Source of the DNA: Betaproteobacteria bacterium SG8_41
GTDB lineage: Bacteria > Pseudomonadota > Gammaproteobacteria > Burkholderiales > SG8-41
Direction of reading: 5' to 3'
Assembly: GCA_001303585.1 (NCBI GenBank)
Contig: LJTT01000001.1
Coordinates: 49,088-113,087 of the forward strand
Length of the DNA stretch: 64,000 bases
Made by a program: the position numbers and the translations under genes. Shown here one piece after another: positions 4,691-52,629 of the stretch (position 1 is the stretch's first letter; every line of letters starts with the position of its first letter). The notes under the pieces are model-generated. The model did not search any database, was not told the origin of the DNA, and saw only the letters and a list, made by a program, of their open reading frames with translations.

Positions 4691-5722
4691 ATGGCAGACG
4701 CACCCGTTTTGAACGAACGAGCCCAGCTCCTGCTGAAGACGCTGGTCGAACGCTACGTCGCGGAGGGTCAGCCGGTGGGCTCGCGTGCTTTGTCAAAGTT
4801 CTCCGGTCTCGATCTGAGCCCCGCGAGCATCCGCAACATCATGTCGGACCTCGAGGAAATGGGCTTCATCGCGAGCCCGCATACATCGGCCGGCCGGGTT
4901 CCGACCGCGCGCGGATACCGGTTCTTCGTGGATACGCTGCTTACCATCAAGCCGCTCGACCGGATGGAAGTCCATCAGCTCGAGGAGCAGCTCGACACCG
5001 AGAACCGGCAGCGACTCGTGACATCTGCTTCGCACCTCCTTTCCGAGTTGACGCATTTTGCTGGAGTGGTGCGGACACCACGCCGCAACTCCGGGTTTCG
5101 CCACATCGAGTTCCTGCGTCTCTCGGAAAGCCGCATCCTGCTCATCATCGTCACACCGGAAGGCGACGTGCAAAACCGCATCCTGCACACCGACAGGCCG
5201 TTTGCCCCGTCGGAGCTGACGGAAGCTGCCAATATTCTCAACCAGCACTACGCGGGCCTCACCTTCACCGAAATCCGTCACCGGATCCGCGATGAGCTGA
5301 GGCAGCTGACCGAGGACATGACGCAGTTGATGACGGCCGCCCTGGAAGCGGGAAGCCGTGCCGAAACAGAATCCTCGGAGGACGTCGTGATCTCGGGCGA
5401 GAGTAACCTGCTCGATTCGCAGGACCTCTCTTCCAACATGTCCAATCTGCGCAGGCTCTTCGAGCTCTTCGACCGCAAGACCGGCCTGCTGCAGCTGCTC
5501 GACGTATCGAGCCGCGCCCAGGGAGTCCAGATTTTCATCGGTGGCGAATCCGGCGTGGCGCCGCTCGACGAGTGCAGCGTTATCGCGGCTCCCTACACCG
5601 TGGATGGCCAGGTGGTCGGCACTGTCGGCGTCATCGGCCCGACGCGCATGGCTTACGAGCGCGTGATACCCCTGGTGGATATCACCGCGAAACTCCTCAC
5701 CACCGTGCTTACGCAGCGCTGA
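4691..5722 (+). CDS. hrcA: heat-inducible transcription repressor HrcA
   Basis: N-terminal winged helix [30 protein letters not shown], 343 aa, next to heat-shock genes. Confidence 0.9.
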
Positions 5723-5734
5723 ACTTCGCGTTCG

Positions 5735-5824
5735 TTCCAGGTTCAAGGTTCCATGTTCAAGGTTCGATGCCCTGGAAGCCTTCCTTGAACTTTGAACATT
5801 AAACCCGGAACATTGAACCGTGAA
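5735..5824. repeat. inverted heptad arms, GGTTCAA family
   Basis: Left arm ttccagg ttcaagg ttccatg ttcaagg ttcgatg (5735-5769); right arm cctggaa ... ccttgaa ctttgaa cattaaa cccggaa cattgaa ccgtgaa (5771-5824). The hemH GTG (5820) is in the last unit. Confidence 0.85.
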
Positions 5825-6905
5825 CCCAGAACCTCCCTACGCCCACGGGACCGAGCCTCGAATCGGCGTTCTGCTCGTCAACCTGGGCACACCGGACGCG
5901 CCGAACGCCAGCGCGGTGCGCACCTACCTTCGGGAGTTCCTTTCCGACCCGAGAGTCGTCGAAATTCCGCGCATTGTATGGTGGCCGATCCTGCATGGCT
6001 TCGTTCTCACAACGCGGCCGAGGGGATCGGCCGAACGCTATGCCCAGGTGTGGATGAGCGACGGCTCGCCGCTCAAGGTTCACACCGAACGGCAGACCAA
6101 GCTCGTGCGCGGTTATCTCGGCGATCGCGCCCGACAGCTGCCCATCGTGCTCGACTATGCGATGCGCTACGGCTCACCATCGATCGCGGAAAAGATGCGC
6201 GAGCTGAAGCTTCATCATTGCAACCGCATTCTGGTCGTGCCGCTCTACCCCCAGTACTCCGCCAGCACCACGGCCTCCGTCGTCGATGCCGCCACCGCCT
6301 GCCTTGCGTCCATGCGCAACCAGCCGGCGCTGCGGACGGTACGCAGCTTTCACGACCATCCCGGCTACATCGGGGCGCTGGCACAAAGCGTGCGCGACTA
6401 CTGGATGAGAAACCACCGGCCGGATGTGCTTCTCATGAGTTTTCACGGGGTGCCGCGCTACACGCTCGAGAAGGGGGACCCCTACCACTGTGAGTGCCAG
6501 AAGACGGGGCGCTTGCTCGCGGAGGCGCTGTCGCTGCGCCCGGAGCAGTACCGGATCACCTTCCAGTCGCGCTTCGGCAGGACGGAGTGGCTGAAGCCCT
6601 ACACCGCTGACGTCCTGAAGGAGCTCGGCAAACAAGGGCTCGGGCGCGTCGACGTCATGTGCCCAGGCTTCGTCAGCGATTGCCTGGAAACGCTCGAGGA
6701 AATCGCGATCGAGGGAAAGACGATCTTCCTCAAGTCCGGCGGGCGGGAGTTCCATCACATCCCTTGCCTCAACGAGCGCGACGACTGGATCCACACGCTC
6801 ACCGACATTGTGTTGCGAAATCTCCTTGGCTGGGAACACAAGGTTTCAAGCGAGCAGCTGGAGAAATCGCGCCTGAGCGCGCTTGCCATGGGTGCGGAAA
6901 GCTAG
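5820..6905 (+). CDS. hemH: ferrochelatase
   Basis: [16 protein letters not shown]-terminal motif and length 361 aa. The GTG start at 5820 lies inside a repeat arm, and there is no upstream ATG. Confidence 0.9.
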
Positions 6906-27917: not shown

Positions 27918-28412
27918 ATGGTCAAGTTGCACACCAATTTCGGCGCCATTTCACTCGAACTCGACGCCGCGCGCGCTCCGCAAACAGTCGCCAACTTTCT
28001 GCAATATGTGAGGGATGGCCACTACGACAACACGATTTTTCATCGCGTCATAGACGGCTTCATGATTCAGGGCGGCGGCTTCGAGCCGGGAATGAAGCAG
28101 AAACCGACGCGCGCGGCGATCAAGAACGAAGCCGACAACAAGGTTCCGAACGCGCCTTACACCGTCTCGATGGCGCGCACGTCAGAGCCCCATTCGGCAA
28201 GCGCGCAGTTCTTCATCAATGTCGGGAGCAACGATTTTCTCAACTATACCGCGCCTACGGCGCAGGGCTGGGGCTATTGCGTCTTTGGGCGGGTCGTCGA
28301 CGGCACCGATGTAGTCGACCGGATCAAGAGCGTCCAGACCGGGCGCAAAGGTTTTCACGACGATGTGCCGCTCGAGGATGTCATCATAGAACGCGCCGAG
28401 ACCAACGAGTAA
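27918..28412 (+). CDS. ppiB: peptidylprolyl isomerase B (cytoplasmic cyclophilin)
   Basis: [31 protein letters not shown]; 164 aa. Confidence 0.9.
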
Positions 28413-28484
28413 TTCGTGATGCGCGTCAGGTAAACGGTAAAGCCTGCTCTCACGCCGCCACCCGTCACTCATCACGCATAACGA

Positions 28485-29207
28485 ATGACGCACAGCCTCT
28501 TCATTTCAGACCTGCACCTGGCCCCCGGGCGTCCCGCTACCACTGACTCCTTCTTCGGGTTCTTGAAGGGACCAGCCGCGCAGGCCGAAGCGCTGTACAT
28601 CCTTGGCGATTTGTTCGAGTACTGGATCGGAGACGATGATCTGTCTGACCCGTTCAACGCCTCGGTTGCCGAAGCGCTGGGCGCGCTCTCCCGGCGGGGC
28701 GTGGCCGTCAACCTGATGCAGGGAAATCGCGACGTTCTGATGGGTGACGAGTTTGCCGGCCGTTGTGGCGGACGCCTGCTGGCAGATCCCGCAATCCTCG
28801 ACCTGTACGGCAAACCCACGCTCGTCATGCACGGTGACACGCTGTGCACCGACGACGTCGAGTACATGAAATGGCGCGCCAAGGCCCGCGACCCCGCCTT
28901 CCAGGCTAGATTCCTGGGGCAGCCGATCCCTGAGCGCAAGCGGCTGATCGTCGGCATGCGCCAGAAGAGCGAGGAGCACAAGCAGGGGCAATCTCCGGCC
29001 ATCATGGATGTTGCGAAGCCAACGGTGGAGCGGATTTTGCGTGACTTCAACTATCCGCGTCTCATCCATGGTCATACTCACCGCCCGGCGCGCCACGTGC
29101 ACCGGATCGACGGCCATGACTGCGAGCGCTGGGTGCTGACCGACTGGTACGGAAGTGGCGGATACTTGCGCTGCGACGCCAGCGGCTGCACCGTGACCGC
29201 ACTATGA
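28485..29207 (+). CDS. lpxH: UDP-2,3-diacylglucosamine diphosphatase
   Basis: LFISDLHL metallophosphoesterase start, GNRD and HGD motifs, 240 aa, in the ppiB-lpxH context. Confidence 0.88.
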   Translation: MTHSLFISDLHLAPGRPATTDSFFGFLKGPAAQAEALYILGDLFEYWIGDDDLSDPFNASVAEALGALSRRGVAVNLMQGNRDVLMGDEFAGRCGGRLLADPAILDLYGKPTLVMHGDTLCTDDVEYMKWRAKARDPAFQARFLGQPIPERKRLIVGMRQKSEEHKQGQSPAIMDVAKPTVERILRDFNYPRLIHGHTHRPARHVHRIDGHDCERWVLTDWYGSGGYLRCDASGCTVTAL

Positions 29208-34263: not shown

Positions 34264-35586
34264 TCACCGGGGTTCCGCCACCGAGGCCCCCGCCGCGCGT
34301 CTGCGCTCAAGCAAGGCCATAACCGCTGCTACGGTGTAGAACGACCCGAACACGACGATTCTATCATTTTCCGTCGCCATATCACAGGCTTGCGCGTACG
34401 CGTCGACCACGCTGGCGCACGGCGTGCAGCCCGCTATGTCCGCGGCGGCCAGGGCACGTTCCAGTTCCCTCGAGTCCCCCCCGCGGGGGCCGGACAATCC
34501 AGCGACATACCAATGCGAGATCTGCGGCGCCACGGCCGACGCCACGCCCGCAATGTCCTTGTCGCGAAGCATCGCGAACACCGCATATGTGCGGCCAGCG
34601 CACTCCATCGCAGCAAGATTGTCCGCCAGCGCGCGCGCCGCATGCACGTTATGCGCCACGTCGAGAATTACGGCCGGGCGCCCCGGAATGACCTGGAACC
34701 GGCCGGGCACCTCCACCCGCAACAATCCTTGCCTGATATCGTTCATGGTCACCGGCAAACTGTCGCGCAGGCACTCGAGCGCCGTAATCGCTGCCGCCGC
34801 GTTGTCCAGCTGGCACACACCGCGCAACGCGGGGTGCGGCAGTGCGTTGCGCGGTCCTCTCGGTCCCCAATATTGCCAGTGCCTGCCCTGCACTCTGAAG
34901 CCAAAATCCCGCCCGATCCGCAAGAGCCCTGCGCCAATGTCTGCGGCGTGACGGACGAGACGCTCCGGCGGGGACGCGTCCGAGCAAACCGCTGGCCGGC
35001 CCGCCCGGAAAATGCCCGCTTTTTCTGCCCCGATCACCTCACGATCCGCGCCAAGGTAATCAACATGGTCGATATCGACCGCCGTTACCACTGCGCAATC
35101 GGCATCGAAGGCATTGACCGCGTCGAGGCGCCCCCCGAGCCCGACCTCGAGGACCGCCACGTCCACCCGCTGCTCGATAAACAGCCACAGGGCCACCAGC
35201 GTGCCGTACTCGAAATACGTCAGTGCAACATTGCCACGCATCCGCTCCACCTCGTCGAATGCCCTGACAAGCGCGGCGTCGGCCAGCTCCATTCCCCCGA
35301 CGCGCACCCGCTCGTTATAGCGCAGGAAGTGCGGTGAGGTATAGCAGCCGACGCGGTAGCCGGCGTGGCGCAAGACCGACTCCAGCATCGCGCAGGTGGA
35401 GCCCTTGCCATTGGTGCCGCCGACCGTGATGATGGGAAAACTCGGCTCGAGAGAAAGTCGCTCCTTGACGCGCCCGACCCGCTCGAGACCTAGCGCGATC
35501 GTCTGCGGATGCAGGCGCTCGATATACGCCAGCCATTCGGCTAGCGTTTCAGGTTCAAGGTTCAAGGTTCTAGGTTCTAGGTTCAA
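34264..35586 (-). CDS. folC: bifunctional folylpolyglutamate synthase/dihydrofolate synthase
   Basis: LAEWLAYIERLHPQTIALGLERV, P-loop TVGGTNGKGST. The start must be TTG 35586 or TTG 35565, both inside the heptad array; there is no ATG or GTG before the P-loop. Confidence 0.88.
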   Translation of the reverse strand: MNLEPRTLNLEPETLAEWLAYIERLHPQTIALGLERVGRVKERLSLEPSFPIITVGGTNGKGSTCAMLESVLRHAGYRVGCYTSPHFLRYNERVRVGGMELADAALVRAFDEVERMRGNVALTYFEYGTLVALWLFIEQRVDVAVLEVGLGGRLDAVNAFDADCAVVTAVDIDHVDYLGADREVIGAEKAGIFRAGRPAVCSDASPPERLVRHAADIGAGLLRIGRDFGFRVQGRHWQYWGPRGPRNALPHPALRGVCQLDNAAAAITALECLRDSLPVTMNDIRQGLLRVEVPGRFQVIPGRPAVILDVAHNVHAARALADNLAAMECAGRTYAVFAMLRDKDIAGVASAVAPQISHWYVAGLSGPRGGDSRELERALAAADIAGCTPCASVVDAYAQACDMATENDRIVVFGSFYTVAAVMALLERRRAAGASVAEPR

Positions 35587-35697
35587 GGTTCAAGGTTCAA
35601 GGTTCAAGGTTCAAGGTTCAAGGTTCAAGGTTCAAGGTCGACCTTCAAACCCGCGCTTCGAACTTTGAACCTGGACCCTTGAACTTTGAACCCGGAC
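35551..35697. repeat. largest array: 12 heptads AGGTTCA/AGGTTCT plus 1 degenerate unit, directly abutting an 8-unit arm of opposite orientation
   Basis: 35551-35634 is 12 exact-period units (two AGGTTCT variants at units 3-4); unit 13 is aggtcga. The second arm is ccttcaa acccgcg cttcgaa ctttgaa cctggac ccttgaa ctttgaa cccggac (35642-35697). The centre is the palindrome AAGGTCGACCTT (35634-35645). Confidence 0.95.
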
Positions 35698-35700
35698 CCG

Positions 35701-36567
35701 TTACGGAGCGGGGGGAAGCTTCAGTAGAAGCGTAATGATGCTGGCGAGCTTGTCCCGCAATTCGCGGCGGTCCACGATCATGTCTATCGCGCCGTGCTGC
35801 AGCAGAAATTCCGAACGCTGAAAACCTTCCGGCAACGTCTCGCGCACCGTTTGCTCGATGACCCGCGGCCCAGCGAAACCAATGAGGGCACCCGGTTCCG
35901 CAATGACTACATCCCCGATCATGGCAAAACTGGCTGAAACGCCGCCCATCGTTGGATCCGTCAGCACCGTGATGAACGGAAGGCGTTCCCGCGCGAGTTG
36001 CGTGACGGCCGCGCAGGTCTTCGACATTTGCATCAGCGAGAAGAGCCCTTCCTGCATGCGCGCGCCCCCGCTGGCTGTAAAGCAGATGTACGGCAGACGC
36101 TGCTCCAGACAGACCTTCACACCGCGCACGAACCGCTCCCCCACCACGGAACCCATGGACCCGCCGAGAAAGTCGAACTCGAATGCGGCAGCGACCACGG
36201 GATGGGTCTTGATGCTGCCCTGCATGACGATAAGCGCATCTTCCTCCGACGTCGTGCGGCGCCCCTCTTCCAGGCGTTCCGTGTAGCGCCGGCTGTCCTT
36301 GAACTTGAGGCTGTCTACCGGCAGAACATCAGCACCAACTTCGTACCGGCCTTCGCGGTCGAGCAGCCAGTCGAGTCGCTCGCGGGCCGAGACACGATTG
36401 TGATGCGCGCATTTCGGGCAAACATAGAGGTTCTTCTCCAGATCGGCCCGGTACAGCACGGCTTCGCACGCCTCGCACTTGCTCCACAGGCCCTCCGGCA
36501 CCATCTTCCGCGGGCTGCCCGCGTCGCGCTTGATCTTCGGCGGCAGCAGTTTTTGCAGCCAGCTCAT
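35701..36567 (-). CDS. accD: acetyl-CoA carboxylase carboxyltransferase subunit beta
   Basis: Zinc ribbon CEACEAVLY...CPKCAHH, then a carboxyltransferase domain. Confidence 0.93.
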
Positions 36568-37382: not shown

Positions 37383-37390
37383 GTCAAATA

Positions 37391-37508
37391 CGGTTACCAG
37401 TGACCGGTGACCGGTGACCGGAACGCCCAATGACGGGTGTCCGGTCCGCCGTTAGCAGAAACACCCATATCCCAGACTTTGTTAACGGGTCACGGGTCAC
37501 GGGTCACG
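37391..37508. repeat. inverted heptad arms, GGTCAC family
   Basis: Left arm cggttac cagtgac cggtgac cggtgac (37391-37418); right arm gttaacg ggtcacg ggtcacg ggtcacg (37481-37508). Lies between the trpB stop and the trpA start. Confidence 0.9.
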
Positions 37509-37513
37509 GGCTG

Positions 37514-40267: not shown

Positions 40268-42784
40268 CTAGCCCAGGCTTGCGAGCAGCGCCTTCGCCTG
40301 CGACTTCTGGTCGGCGTCACCCTCGTTGATCACTTCCTGCAGGATCTCCTTGGCGCCTACCTTGTCGCCCATCTCCTGGTATGCCTTGGCCAGATCGAAC
40401 TTCGTCTGGACGTCGTACCAATGGCCGTCTTTGGTTGTCGGCACGCCTTGCGCTGTCGTAGACGCAGGCTTTTCGCCAAGGTCGAGCCCGCCCGGAATAT
40501 CAAGCTTGAAGTCGGTACCGCCGGGGCTCGTCAAATCTTTCACCGTTGGCAATTCGTGGATAGGCACCTCCGCTGGCGGAAGCTCGATGTGGAAGTCGAT
40601 GGTTCCCGGGTCCTTGGCGGTCTCGCGGCCCGTTTCGGGCTTCAGGTCGGCTTCCGCGGGTATTTCCTGCGCGGGCGGCACGTCGAGCTTGAAATCCGGC
40701 ATTGACGGAGCCTCTGCCGCGCGCTGCGCGCGCTCCACATCGGTTGCCATGCCGGTATCGACCACGGTCTGGGTCGCCGCCTGCACCGCAGCGGCAGCTT
40801 CGCTGCCAAGTTCGATGTCAGTAGTGGTCAGACCGACTCCAGCGCCGATCCCCAGGTCGATATCCAGGTTCTGCCCGGTTCTCGGGCCTGAGGGCGCTGG
40901 CGCTTCCGCGCCTTTGCCGGCCTCGTACAGCCTGTTCCCGGGGTCGAACGCGTACCCCATCGCCGCGACCTTGAGCCATTCGCTTCCCGCACTGCCAATC
41001 TGCTTCTGAACGTCCGTCGCAAGCTGACCAAACGCGCTCTTGTCTTTTCGCGCCGCGTAGATCTCAAGCAGCTTCAGCTTCACGTCCGCCCGGTTAGGCG
41101 CTCGTGCCAGTGCTTCCTTGAGAATCTCTTCTGCCTGTCCGTCCCGACCGTACGCGATATAGACTTCCGCCTCGGCAAGGGGATCAACGTCATCAGTCGC
41201 AGCCGACGCCGACGTGCTAGGTGCTGCGGCGGAATCAATATCGTCAGTTGAGGCGACTACCCCCGCCGCAGCGGTAGCCGCCGGACCAAGAGTCGGTGAT
41301 TCCCGGCCCATACCGATGTCAATGGCCTCGCGTGCGCGTCGGCGGCGCGCCATCCACAGCGCGAGGCCGCCCAGCACAAGGGCGCCGCTACCCGCCGCGA
41401 GGTACATTGGGTTTCCCACTGCCTCGATCACCTGGTCCATGAGCCCGGGCTGCGACGGCGCAGGCGGTGGCGCGACGATCTTGGGCTTCGGTTTCTGTTT
41501 CGGGGGCTCGGGCTTGGCAACAACCTTCGGCTTTTCCGGCACCGGCTGCGCCGCTTCCGGCTTGGCAGGCGCCGTCACTGCTGGTGCGGGCGCGGTTGCC
41601 GGCGCGGGAGGCGCGGCCTCCTGAGCCTGCTGCTGAGCAGCTGCCATACCCGAGCTCCGCAGCTCGATCAGCTTCTGCATGTCCTTGATGGTCTTCTCGA
41701 GCTGCACAATGCGCTCGTTGGCTTCCGCCAGCGCTTTTTCACGCGCCACGACTTCTTCCTCGAGAGCGCGGATGCGTTCTGCCGTACTAGCGGGTTTGTC
41801 AGCGCCAGCGGCAGGGGGCTCACCCTTGGAAATCTTTACGACTTCTTTCGGCCCCTCGCCGGGGCTCTCCTCGACTTTGGCCACGATCTTGCCGCTCGCA
41901 GCGCTTCGGCTGCTCGCCGGCGTCTCACCAGCCGCGTCCGCGAGGCGCTGGCGATAGGCTCTCCAATCGGTCACGTGAGCGCGGTAGACCTTGACCGCCT
42001 CGCCTCTCGAAATCGCTTCCACTTCTTCCCGGTCGGGAACACGGAGAATCTTCCCCGCCCGCACCAGATTCAGATTCTTGCGAATAAAGACTTCCTCGTT
42101 CGCGCGATACAGCGCCACCAGCATCTGCTCCAGCGTCACGCCCTCCGGCATCACGCTCCGTGCAATCTTGCCCAGCGTCTCTCCCCGCTCGATCGGCCCG
42201 TATTCCTTCGCTCCCGCCATCGGCGCCGGCGTAATCGGCTGGCTCACAGGCGCGGTGACTGGCGGTTCCGGCGCCGCTTGCATCGCTGGCGACGCTGGCG
42301 CCAGAGGCGCCGCCGGTGCTTCAGGAGTCATGGGCACAGGACGCATCTCAGGTGCCGCGGAAACGGTGGGGGCCGCTTCGCCCAGCGGCATCGACCCGAC
42401 GCCTGGCGGGTCGAGCAATGCGGTGTATTCACGCATGATGCGCCCGGAAGACCACGTCAGATCGATCATCAGGTCGATGAACGGCTCCGTGACGGGCCGC
42501 GATGTCGTGACCTTGAGATAGGGCCGCCCATCCGGACGCTTCTCGATCGTAACGCGCGCTCCCGGTAGCGCCGCGTTGTACTGCAGGTTGGCTTTTTTAT
42601 AGGCTTCAGGCGGTGCAATCCGGGCGCTGAGCGAGCCCATCTCGGCTTTGCTGACCGAGACCAACTCGATCTCCGCGCTGAACGGATGACCCAGAGCCGA
42701 CAGCACCGTGAGCCGCCCTAAGCCGGCTGCAGTTGCAAGCCCGGTCGCCAGCGCCATGAGCAGCATCGAGAGCGATGCCTTCAT
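40268..42784 (-). CDS. fimV: FimV-like peptidoglycan-binding protein
   Basis: Signal/transmembrane N-terminus, LysM-like YGPIERGETLGKIAR, a long acidic Pro/Ala-rich region with a mid transmembrane segment, and the C-terminal motif DLAKAYQEMGDKVGAKEILQEVI. ATG at 42784. Confidence 0.75.
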   Translation of the reverse strand: MKASLSMLLMALATGLATAAGLGRLTVLSALGHPFSAEIELVSVSKAEMGSLSARIAPPEAYKKANLQYNAALPGARVTIEKRPDGRPYLKVTTSRPVTEPFIDLMIDLTWSSGRIMREYTALLDPPGVGSMPLGEAAPTVSAAPEMRPVPMTPEAPAAPLAPASPAMQAAPEPPVTAPVSQPITPAPMAGAKEYGPIERGETLGKIARSVMPEGVTLEQMLVALYRANEEVFIRKNLNLVRAGKILRVPDREEVEAISRGEAVKVYRAHVTDWRAYRQRLADAAGETPASSRSAASGKIVAKVEESPGEGPKEVVKISKGEPPAAGADKPASTAERIRALEEEVVAREKALAEANERIVQLEKTIKDMQKLIELRSSGMAAAQQQAQEAAPPAPATAPAPAVTAPAKPEAAQPVPEKPKVVAKPEPPKQKPKPKIVAPPPAPSQPGLMDQVIEAVGNPMYLAAGSGALVLGGLALWMARRRRAREAIDIGMGRESPTLGPAATAAAGVVASTDDIDSAAAPSTSASAATDDVDPLAEAEVYIAYGRDGQAEEILKEALARAPNRADVKLKLLEIYAARKDKSAFGQLATDVQKQIGSAGSEWLKVAAMGYAFDPGNRLYEAGKGAEAPAPSGPRTGQNLDIDLGIGAGVGLTTTDIELGSEAAAAVQAATQTVVDTGMATDVERAQRAAEAPSMPDFKLDVPPAQEIPAEADLKPETGRETAKDPGTIDFHIELPPAEVPIHELPTVKDLTSPGGTDFKLDIPGGLDLGEKPASTTAQGVPTTKDGHWYDVQTKFDLAKAYQEMGDKVGAKEILQEVINEGDADQKSQAKALLASLG

Positions 42785-44208: not shown

Positions 44209-45273
44209 TCAAAGCTCCGCAAGCACCGCGTCCCCCATCTCAGCCGTGCCGACCTTCCGGGCGCCGCCCTCCTGTATGTCCGCCGTGCGCAAACCCTGCG
44301 CGAGCACGCGCTTGACCGCATCCTCGATTCGCTTCGCCGCCTCGTCCTGGTTGAACGTGTAGCGCAGCATCATGGCCAACGACAAGATCGTCGCCAGAGG
44401 ATTCGCCAGGTTCTTGCCGACTATGTCCGGCGCCGAGCCGTGCACCGGCTCGTAGAGCCCCTTGGAGCGCTCGTCGAGCGAAGCCGAGGGAAGCATCCCG
44501 ATCGAGCCCGTCAGCATCGATGCCTCATCGGACAGGATATCGCCAAACATGTTCCCGGTCACGATTACATCGAACTGCTTGGGGGCACGCACGAGTTGCA
44601 TCGCTGCGTTGTCCACGTACATGTGCGTGAGCGTGACCTGGGGATAATCTTTGGCGACATCGGTCACCACCTCCCGCCAGAAACGGCTGGTCTCGAGCAC
44701 GTTTTCCTTGTCCACCGAGCAGAGCTTGCGGCCGCGCTTCATCGCGGTGGTGAATCCCACGCGCGCAATCCGGCGGATCTCGGGTTCGCTATAGAGCATC
44801 GTGTCGAAGCCCTCGCGCTCCTGGCGCGCGTTAACTCGCCGGCCGCGCGGTTCGCCAAAGTAAATATCGCCCGTCAGCTCGCGGATGATCATGACGTCGA
44901 GCCCCGACACGATTTCCGGCTTGAGCGTCGACGCGCCGACCAGCTCCGGAAACAGCACTGCCGGCCGCAGATTGGCGAAAAGTCCGAGCTCCTTGCGAAT
45001 TCGCAGAATCCCCTGCTCCGGGCGCTGCGCACGCGGCAGCACATCGTACTGCGGACCGCCCACTGCTCCGCAAAGAACGGCATCCGCCGCCTTGGCAAGC
45101 CTGAGCGTCGCCTCGGGAAGCGGATCGCCATGGGCGTCGTAGCCGGCACCACCGAAGGGCGCCTGCTCGAGCTCCAGCTTCAGCCCGTCACTGGCCAGCG
45201 CCTGCAGCACCTTCATCGCCTCAGCAATGATCTCCGGGCCGATGCCGTCGCCCGCCAGAACCGCAATCTTCAT
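44209..45273 (-). CDS. leuB: 3-isopropylmalate dehydrogenase
   Basis: [41 protein letters not shown]. Confidence 0.95.
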
Positions 45274-46038: not shown

Positions 46039-47407
46039 TTATTTCATGGTACGAACATCGACAAAATGCCCGGCGACCGCCGCCGCCGCCGCCATCGCGG
46101 GACTAACAAGATGTGTTCTGCCGCCGGCACCCTGCCGACCCTCGAAATTGCGATTCGAAGTGGATGCGCAACGCTCGCCCGGCGAGAGCTGGTCGTCGTT
46201 CATGCCCAGACACATAGAGCAGCCCGGCTGGCGCCACTCGAATCCGGCTGCGGTGAAGATCTTGTCGAGCCCTTCTTGTTCAGCCTGCTGCTTGACCAGG
46301 CCCGATCCGGGGACGACGATTGCCAGCTTGATATTCGAAGCCACCCGTTTGTCCTTCACGACCTGGGCCGCGGCACGCAGATCCTCGATGCGCGAGTTGG
46401 TGCAGGCGCCAATGAATATCTTGTCGGGCTTGATCTGGGTAATGGGCGTGTTGGGCTTGAGGTCCATGTACTTGAGTGCGCGCTCCATCCACTCGCGCTG
46501 CACGGGATCCTTCTCCTGCGCAGGGTCGGGCACCTTTCCGTCAACGGTCGTCACCATCTGAGGCGATGTGCCCCAGCTCACCTGCGGCTGGATCTGGGCC
46601 GCGTCGAGCGTGACCACCTTGTCGAAAGTCGCATCGGGATCGCTAACGAGCGTGCGCCAGTAGGCAAGCGCCTTGTCCCACATCGCGCCCGCGGGCGCCA
46701 TGGGACGCCCCTTCACGTACTCGATCGTCGTGTCGTCCACTGCAACCATGCCGGCCCGCGCGCCCGCCTCGATCGACATGTTGCAGACGGTCATGCGGCC
46801 TTCCATTGAAAGCGCGCGGATGGCGCTCCCGGCAAACTCGATGCTGTAACCGGTGCCACCTGCGGTACCGATTTTTCCGATGATCGCGAGAATGATGTCT
46901 TTCGCCGTGACGCCGAGGCCGAGCGCTCCCTCCACCTCGACTTTCATGGTCTTCGTCTTTTTCATCATCAGGCACTGGGTCGCAAGCACGTGCTCGACCT
47001 CGCTCGTGCCGATACCGAAGGCAAGACAACCGAAGGCGCCGTGCGTGCTCGTATGCGAGTCGCCGCACACGACTGTCATGCCCGGAAGCGTCGCGCCCTG
47101 CTCCGGCCCGATCACGTGCACGATCCCTTGCTGCCTATCGAGAAACGGAAAATAGACTTTGGCACCGAATTCCTTGATGTTCTTGTCGAGCGTCTCGACC
47201 TGCAGTCGCGAAACCGGATCGGTGATGCCGCCGAACCGAATCCACGCGCCACGGCTTGCGCCCCGCGAGCTTCAGCCCCTCGTAGGCCTGCGGACTGGTT
47301 ACCTCGTGAACGAGGTGGCGGTCGATGTAAATAAGTGCGGAGCCATCGGGCGCTTGGTGCACGAGATGGCTATCCCATAATTTGTCGTAAAGCGTCCGGG
47401 CTGTCAT
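46039..47407 (-). pseudogene. leuC: 3-isopropylmalate dehydratase large subunit, disrupted (internal deletion plus frameshift near 47236)
   Basis: The N-terminal 57 aa ([57 protein letters not shown]) are in one frame. The rest ([47 protein letters not shown]...) is in another. The conserved DHN-containing segment between them is missing. Confidence 0.8.
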
Positions 47408-52488: not shown

Positions 52489-52494
52489 CCGGGA

Positions 52495-52624
52495 CTGTTC
52501 CGGGTTTCAAGTTCGATGTTCAACGCTGCATGTTCAATGTCCAAAACCAGACCGTCTGACCCGGACAACCTTTAACCTTGAACGTTGAACTTTGAACTTT
52601 GAACCTTGAACATGGAACCTGGAA
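52495..52624. repeat. inverted heptad arms, GTTCAA family
   Basis: Left arm ctgttcc gggtttc aagttcg atgttca acgctgc atgttca atgtcca (52495-52543); right arm cctttaa ccttgaa cgttgaa ctttgaa ctttgaa ccttgaa catggaa cctggaa (52569-52624). The folA ATG is 6 nt downstream. Confidence 0.85.
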
Positions 52625-52629
52625 CTTCG

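Follow-up and report, generated by a model that had tools for sequence, protein, structure and literature searches.

Arrays of tandemly repeated heptamers have been known from bacterial genomes for decades, with first reports in the 1990s. Here, a heptad array is described that is located in the spacer between accD and folC on the minus strand of a 64,000-nt stretch (termed the window) of the genome of Betaproteobacteria bacterium SG8_41 (contig LJTT01000001.1, positions 49,088 to 113,087). The array forms one arm of a predicted hairpin, and the start codon of folC appears to lie within it. The closest described systems are the heptameric simple sequence repeat (SSR) arrays of Xanthomonas campestris and X. 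citri, which occur in convergent (inverted) pairs, and related ones in Nostoc (Rehm et al. 2015, PMC4692102). Short tandemly repeated repetitive (STRR) heptanucleotides are mentioned for heterocystous cyanobacteria through a citation in the same article. In marine Beggiatoaceae, TAACTGA direct repeats are found directly upstream of start codons (MacGregor 2015, PMC4679880).

The array at 35551-35638 has a period of 7, 12.6 copies, 97% matches and the consensus AGGTTCA according to Tandem Repeats Finder, and it is the largest of the period-7 arrays in the window. It was first noticed in an earlier reading of the DNA (the original prediction), which had ranked it in the same way and had described tandem units passing directly into an opposite-oriented arm centred on a palindrome, with a hairpin between accD and folC. 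This architecture was recovered. Two inverted arms of 60 nt each (35580-35639 and 35640-35699) are 75% complementary with 0 nt between them and meet at the central palindrome. For 186 nt of the folC strand, an RNA fold of -67.2 kcal/mol was predicted, compared to -45.8 +/- 4.6 for shuffled sequences (z = -4.65); the centroid of this fold is poorly defined because the register of the arms can slip. Read on the folC strand, the accD stop codon is followed by a degenerate arm, then by (TTGAACC)8, (TAGAACC)2, (TTGAACC)2 and TGAAACG, and finally by CTA GCC GAA TGG (LAEW) of the FolC coding sequence (Table 1). An Rfam search of the spacer yielded no family above threshold and sub-threshold microRNA-hairpin look-alikes only. 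An assembly artefact, a possibility raised along with the original prediction, was rejected since the same architecture is found in independent assemblies of the same and of sister species. In addition, the perfect run of 56 nt is shorter than the length of ~93 nt at which arrays saturate in this assembly.

Table 1 Features of the accD-folC locus (positions in the window)
Feature	Position	Strand	Basis or remark
accD, acetyl-CoA carboxylase carboxyltransferase beta subunit, 288 aa, stop TAA 35703-35701	35701..36567	-	Pfam Zn_ribbon_ACC + Carboxyl_trans
Hairpin 5' arm on the mRNA	35640..35699	-	degenerate GGTTCAA-type heptads, starting 2 nt past the accD stop
Central palindrome AAGGTCGACCTT, predicted hairpin tip	35634..35645	.	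sequence
(TTGAACC)8, polymorphic perfect run of the 3' arm; last unit contains the optional in-frame TTG 35586-35584	35580..35635	-	
In-frame TGA closing the folC frame upstream of TTG 35586	35590..35592	-	open reading frame (ORF) list, sequence
(TAGAACC)2 variant units	35566..35579	-	sequence
TTGAACC TTGAACC TGAAACG, array 3' end, predicted FolC codons 1-7 (M-N-L-E-P-E-T)	35545..35565	-	invariant among alleles
folC, bifunctional dihydrofolate synthase / folylpolyglutamate synthase, 433 aa from the predicted start TTG 35565	34264..35565	-	NCBIfam NF008101 equivalog

Similar to the SSR pairs of Xanthomonas and Nostoc, 7-nt tandem units are present at many intergenic sites of the genome, often in opposite-oriented pairs able to form a stem-loop. 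The properties that characterize the pairs of Rehm et al. are found here, namely three or more tandem units (12.6), an opposite array that can pair, and many, mostly intergenic copies. In contrast to the G-rich, G-quadruplex-forming unit GGGAATC of Xanthomonas, the unit AGGTTCA / TGAACCT is without a G-tract. The folC element belongs to the architectural class of the Xanthomonas pairs, not to their sequence family. It further differs from the Xanthomonas and Nostoc pairs in that several unit families exist in one genome and in that the folC copy overlaps the coding start, for which it would supply the start codon.

FolC is essential in E. coli, and a single copy of folC is present in the genome studied here. 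The encoded protein matches the NCBIfam equivalog NF008101 over its full length (466 bits). The alignment with E. coli FolC (1W78) begins at residue 12 of the latter, which falls onto T-L-A-E-W-L. An exact look-up of the 433-aa protein returned nothing on record. Before the P-loop, the only in-frame ATG, GTG or TTG codons are TTG 35586 and TTG 35565. The next such codon follows 163 nt after the end of the array, by which point the P-loop has been passed. On the folC strand of the spacer, no ATG or GTG is present in any frame, nor was a GG-containing, purine-rich Shine-Dalgarno-like run found. The original prediction was accurate in these respects, i.e. that the only folC starts are TTGs inside the array, that no ATG or GTG precedes the P-loop, and that a Shine-Dalgarno-like run is lacking. 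It was also correct that the AGGTTCT variant units turn the in-frame TGA into AGA; read in the folC frame, the two T-to-A variants yield CTA, which is silent, and AGA in place of TGA. Judged from the sequence, one of the TTGs within the repeat has to serve as the folC start codon. A read-through fusion of accD and folC was rejected, as the frames of the two genes differ (115 nt from the accD stop to TTG 35586).

To compare the start site, the accD-folC regions were taken from 30 related genomes and 80 named public contigs. All compared genomes are metagenome-assembled and from uncultured Betaproteobacteria/Burkholderiales, and the start comparison covers ~25 species of the same genus. Thirteen relatives from the genus are of the TTG type, and all 13 have a TTG seven codons before the L-x-x-W-L motif (position -7), giving N-termini such as MNLEPET, MNFEPET, MNPNPET, MNVEHRT, MNPKPET and similar. 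The same position is occupied in the window by the proximal TTG (35565-35563), seven codons before the L of LxxWL, which we infer to be the start of folC. Several of the TTG-type relatives (L005, L014 and L016) have a TGA stop two codons upstream of TTG(-7), at codon -9, so that nothing else can start FolC there. Relatives without a TTGAACC-type array have ATG or GTG at position -7 (MSPVPTS in L004, MTSAPTT in L012, and GTG in L013 and L025) or a start at -6 (MNEPAT in L010). TTG(-7) is also found where the array units themselves lack TTG, as in L042 (units CCGAAAC), L035 (mostly CTGAACC) and L007 (degenerate units). Its retention irrespective of unit type speaks for selection on the codon itself and against homogenisation of the repeats. 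In the FolC tree, the TTG(-7) state is basal and widespread in the genus. The comparison bears out the view that an essential gene initiates inside the repeat and points to TTG 35565 as the codon used. In one relative (L002, G008:C292), the folC frame is broken by 1 nt near codon 13, after ...ERLH. The break is probably an assembly error; a contig of the same species (L120, Ga0224512_10000212) is intact.

Alleles of the same species were retrieved via the exact AccD protein, which yielded six contigs from other samples (ENA, JGI, Logan) with 0-1 mismatch in the 867 nt of accD. The 5' arm and the centre of the hairpin are identical in all six. The 3' arm varies: the successive runs of TTGAACC, TAGAACC and TTGAACC comprise 8, 2 and 2 units in the window, 7, 3 and 2 in L115, and 5, 3 and 2 in both L114 and L116. 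Unit number thus does vary in nature, as had been suspected. A further partial allele with a TGGAACC unit extends to the end of its contig (L118), and two contigs (L117 and L119) break inside the array. The last two TTGAACC units and TGAAACG are identical in the three contigs that reach the 3' end, and all observed polymorphism is located 5' of TTG 35565. TTG(-7) is in frame in all four complete alleles, and no out-of-frame allele was seen among these four, compared at the assembly level. Where three TAGAACC units are present, an in-frame TAG at codon -14 replaces TTG 35586. This is the case in three of the four fully assembled alleles, which makes the opening of the folC frame by variant units, as described earlier, a feature of one allele that is not required. 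Selection on the variant units for an open frame was rejected accordingly: two adjacent variants hit the frame-opening phase in one of three cases by chance, so no selection is needed, and the frame is closed in the other alleles. The open frame from TTG 35586 is peculiar to the window allele and incidental. Gene callers annotated a FolC of 433 aa on the other same-species contigs. A metagenome scan with a pattern of the hairpin centre returned no match; with a pattern of the 3' junction, one contig of a sister species was found, which has the same TGA-ACC-TTG start.

The best explanation of these data, to which we assign a probability of about 0.72, is that a hairpin of a genome-wide class overran the folC start, that TTG 35565 is used, that slippage occurs only 5' of this TTG so that unit number cannot put folC out of frame, and that folC is translated at a low level, most likely through coupling to accD or through a standby site. 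A hairpin element would have been present at the accD-folC site since early in the genus, and its 3' arm would have overrun the first seven codons of folC. FolC would then be translated from the TTG 21 nt from the 3' junction of the array, resulting in MNLEPET-LAEWL, and units would be gained and lost by slippage upstream of this codon only. The frame from TTG 35586 would be open in the window by accident, owing to two instead of three TAGAACC units, and could provide a 7-residue extension at most. Low-level translation is expected because the start has no Shine-Dalgarno sequence and lies at the base of an extended, imperfect stem starting 2 nt past the accD stop. By the coupling route, the ribosome that ends accD would open the base of the stem, and the same or a new ribosome would start at the TTG. 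By the standby route, the 30S subunit would bind to single-stranded surplus units of the longer 3' arm. In either case, the number of units could have a graded effect on folC output but could not act as a switch.

The spacer was scanned for promoter-like and terminator-like sites and none were found, hence folC is probably co-transcribed with trpB-trpA-accD. Partition-function folding gives a pairing probability of 0.36-0.45 for TTG 35565 and 0.77-0.80 for TTG 35586. When the 12 nt past the accD stop are held open, the predicted values are 0.12-0.24 and 0.88-0.94, respectively. One relative (L003) has no hairpin, and the TGA of its accD is 7 nt from the same TTG; this gene arrangement may be counted as support for accD-folC coupling. 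From the lack of a Shine-Dalgarno sequence and the position of the start in a predicted stem, we infer that coupling to accD translation would be the likeliest route for folC. RNA-unfolding and re-initiation models of translational coupling are established (reviewed in PMC12548453). The accD-folC pair resembles the coupled pairs rpmI-rplT and phage f1 genes VII-IX (PMC12548453) in that the genes are co-oriented and the downstream start is without a good ribosome-binding site and predicted to be in a structure that involves sequence by the upstream stop. It differs from these pairs in that a 135-nt gap between stop and start is bridged by a repeat-built hairpin, and in that its coupling is a prediction.

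Several observations weigh against this explanation. Homogenisation of the repeats, instead of selection, could account for part of the TTG conservation, although L042 and L035 argue otherwise, and some of the metagenome-assembled loci could be chimeric. The 135 nt of linear distance between the accD stop and the folC start are far above the range of efficient re-initiation. Terminating ribosomes can reportedly be stalled by repetitive extragenic palindromic (REP) hairpins near stop codons, a finding ascribed to Liang, Rudd and Deutscher in 2015. In a library screen by Chemla et al., as cited in the review on coupling (PMC12548453), strong structure right after the upstream stop was negatively correlated with coupling. 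Finally, the absence of a Shine-Dalgarno sequence at folC is not in itself unusual, because only ~39% of the genes in this genome have a 4-mer match by a rough count. Shine-Dalgarno sequences are nonetheless used by the organism, with GGAG/GAGG peaking at -10 to -12.

Other explanations concern the reading frame and the choice of start. According to the original prediction, gain or loss of a 7-nt unit could switch folC on and off or change its start site. A phase-variable switch of this kind, with FolC-off subpopulations arising from frame shifts, is barely credible. The locus shares with the SSR contingency loci of Neisseria and Haemophilus a unit that is not a multiple of 3 and a unit number that is polymorphic between close strains. 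Unlike in such loci, however, the polymorphism is confined to units upstream of the conserved start instead of falling between start and gene body, the two units 3' of the start TTG 35565 are invariant, every complete allele is in frame, and the gene is a single-copy housekeeping gene whose product is known to be essential in E. coli. A unit change anywhere in a tandem array is equivalent to a change at its 5' end, so the 3' junction is unaltered and an in-frame TTG is always supplied: each TTGAACC unit carries a TTG, and the unit 21 nt from the 3' junction provides the in-frame start. To break folC, a change would have to fall within the last two units, and no such change was observed among the alleles. 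With the predicted start downstream of all polymorphism, frame-based on/off switching is excluded. Start-site switching stands in a weak form only, as the window allele alone offers the optional extension from TTG 35586. Use of both TTGs would yield FolC proteins of 440 and 433 aa, with the long isoform toggled by two versus three TAGAACC units. The frame from 35586 is indeed open in the window and closed by TAG in the other alleles, and the local context is identical at both TTGs. Dual starts nevertheless seem unlikely, since TTG 35586 is predicted to be far more paired (0.77-0.94) than TTG 35565 and since the extension is missing in three of four alleles and in the relatives examined (stop at -9 in L005, L014 and L016), which leaves it without a conserved role. 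Very improbable is a start at a non-canonical codon further downstream, e.g. CTG 35532-35530 (the Leu after Trp) or ATC 35523-35521, with the array as a pure 5' leader. Near-cognate starts do occur in bacteria and both TTGs lack a Shine-Dalgarno sequence, but such a start would remove the conserved L-x-x-W-L helix start that aligns with residues 12-17 of E. coli FolC, and the close relatives whose start could be called clearly have retained a canonical one at -7 (-6 in L010).

Two further explanations attribute a function to the hairpin. Unit number may alter the length or register of the hairpin, or its processing by RNase III, and thereby tune folC translation or mRNA stability in a graded manner. 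Such tuning does not conflict with the best explanation; it extends it by an adaptive function. Unit-number polymorphism between near-identical strains is real, and the array is one arm of a long imperfect hairpin directly before the start. A precedent exists in the 5'-untranslated region (5'-UTR) of Haemophilus influenzae hmw1A/hmw2A, where an (ATCTTTC)n hairpin is cut by RNase III and expression is inverse to unit number (PMC12721329). Like the hmw array, the folC array would be transcribed and is hypervariable, located as an arm of a long hairpin before a gene, and without effect through the reading frame. The hmw array, in turn, is part of the monocistronic 5'-UTR of a surface adhesin, has a G-rich partner arm and is proven to be processed by RNase III (PMC12721329), whereas the folC array lies between two cistrons, is followed by a housekeeping gene and contains the predicted start codon of the latter. 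Around 200 such arrays are present in spacers of all kinds, including convergent ones, which makes neutral slippage the simpler account, and a housekeeping gene such as folC has no obvious need for population heterogeneity. Adaptive tuning is therefore doubtful. More doubtful still is that the hairpin is a functional intercistronic device that would join the accD stop and the folC TTG at the base of the stem for re-initiation without a Shine-Dalgarno sequence. The signals would be given by the TTGA start/stop overlap (like ATGA), unit changes would tune the AccD:FolC ratio, and the same design would apply to hemH, folA and trpA.

The TAACTGA arrays of Beggiatoaceae resemble the folC array in abutting start codons as forward heptamer arrays in place of a ribosome-binding site, in preceding some essential genes, and in containing stop codons within the unit; a few of them overlap ORF ends. 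At folC, as well as at hemH and folA, the array likewise reaches or includes the predicted start, and a Shine-Dalgarno sequence is lacking. Its unit, TTGAACC, differs from TAACTGA. The Beggiatoaceae arrays comprise 2-6 direct copies (with one indirect repeat), form no hairpins, and their unit is without a start codon. TTGAACC, in contrast, has both TTG and TGA and forms a hairpin arm.

The comparative and population data indicate that a heptad array can take over the start and the first codons of an essential gene. The array persists across the genus while unit number and unit sequence turn over. It can do so since the repeat unit itself includes the start codon and slippage cannot affect the 3' junction. 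For annotation, it follows that the start next to such arrays should be called at the unit nearest to the 3' junction and not from the longest ORF, and that polymorphism in a repeat is no proof of phase variation, even if its unit length is not divisible by 3. The folC array is a tolerated repeat insertion and not an on/off switch, and its capture of the start codon is a new twist on an already described repeat class. The accD-hairpin-folC arrangement would also be a clean natural system for TTG initiation in a predicted stem without a Shine-Dalgarno sequence.

The accD-folC spacers of the relatives, whose comparison had been proposed with the original prediction, are hairpin-filled almost throughout the genus; the hairpin starts just past the accD stop and runs up to the codon preceding L-x-x-W-L. 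The units differ by species and include GTTCCAG/TTGAACC, GTTTCGA/CCGAAAC, GGGTCAC/CGGGACT, AGTTTCC/TTGAAAC and GCAGTTG/CAACTGC. The start codon shifts along with the unit. In L043 it is a TTG at -12 within the array, whose TCGAAAC variants abolish the TGA. ATG or GTG is found at -17 in the hairpin loop of L011, L029, L040 and L039, and the whole 3' arm would be translated there. Very close sisters in the FolC tree have different units (L011 vs L012, L036 vs L039, L008 vs L040), which indicates fast turnover. A CAACTGC-type hairpin with ATG in the loop is shared by L011, L029 and L040, which are not sisters in the FolC tree, while the true sisters (L012 and L008) have unrelated units. This distribution points to a spacer element that has recombined or been replaced between species, or else to chimeric bins.

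At the genome level, the folC element is one copy of a class of hypervariable heptad-array hairpins. The metagenome-assembled genome (147 contigs, 63% G+C) contains 203 period-7 arrays in total, 108 of them long, with unit families including AATCGTG, AAACTGG and AACCTTG. Among the 150 arrays located between called genes, 99 are found between tandem, 38 between convergent and 13 between divergent pairs. The longest arrays cluster at 91-94 bp (~13.4 units), and several (on C47, C72, C144 and C20) lie at the end of a contig. Perfect arrays are probably not assembled beyond ~k+7 but collapsed or broken there, so that the copy numbers of the longest arrays are lower bounds. Five TTGAACC elements (C17:622-744, C30:~44575-44794, C75:~28300-28517, C40:~41800-42017 and C140:~46100-46312) share a core of ~45 nt, …GGGAACTTCGTATTCGTGGGTCGT.CA.T.TTGC or …GAGGAACTTCG.AAACCGCT…CAATCTTGC, flanked by a degenerate arm on the 5' side and by a perfect (TTGAACC)11-12 arm on the other. 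They look like a dispersed sub-family with a fixed centre. The folC element is without this core, and its origin as a simple copy with a shared mobile core, similar to a miniature inverted-repeat transposable element (MITE), was rejected.

Within the window, a TTGAACC-type unit is found at the starts of three genes, folC and folA (folate) and hemH (haem). The spacer of hemH (ferrochelatase, TIGR00109) at 5722-5835 on the plus strand contains a TTGAACC-type hairpin. Its sole plausible start, GTG 5820, is a GTGAACC variant unit of the 3' arm and would give MNPEP..., a repeat-encoded N-terminus as in FolC. A hairpin of the same type is located upstream of folA (dihydrofolate reductase) at 52489-52629 on the plus strand, with an in-frame TTG 52606 and ATG 52612 inside the 3' arm, an ATG 52630 just past the units, and no Shine-Dalgarno sequence. 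Upstream of accD, the trpA and accD genes overlap via ATGA (36564-36567). The trpB-trpA spacer (37383-37513, minus strand), a site that normally holds overlapping, coupled genes, contains an inverted pair of the heptads GACCCGT (x3.7) and GGTCACC (x4), which ends 9 nt before the trpA ATG 37382. Elsewhere in the genome, three genes encode PF05635 (23S rRNA intervening-sequence protein; C55:1399-1665, C61:70454-70717 and C50:18002-18256), of which at least the one on C55 is flanked by short inverted heptad-like motifs (GTGATGA GTGATGG ... CCATCAC TCATCAC).

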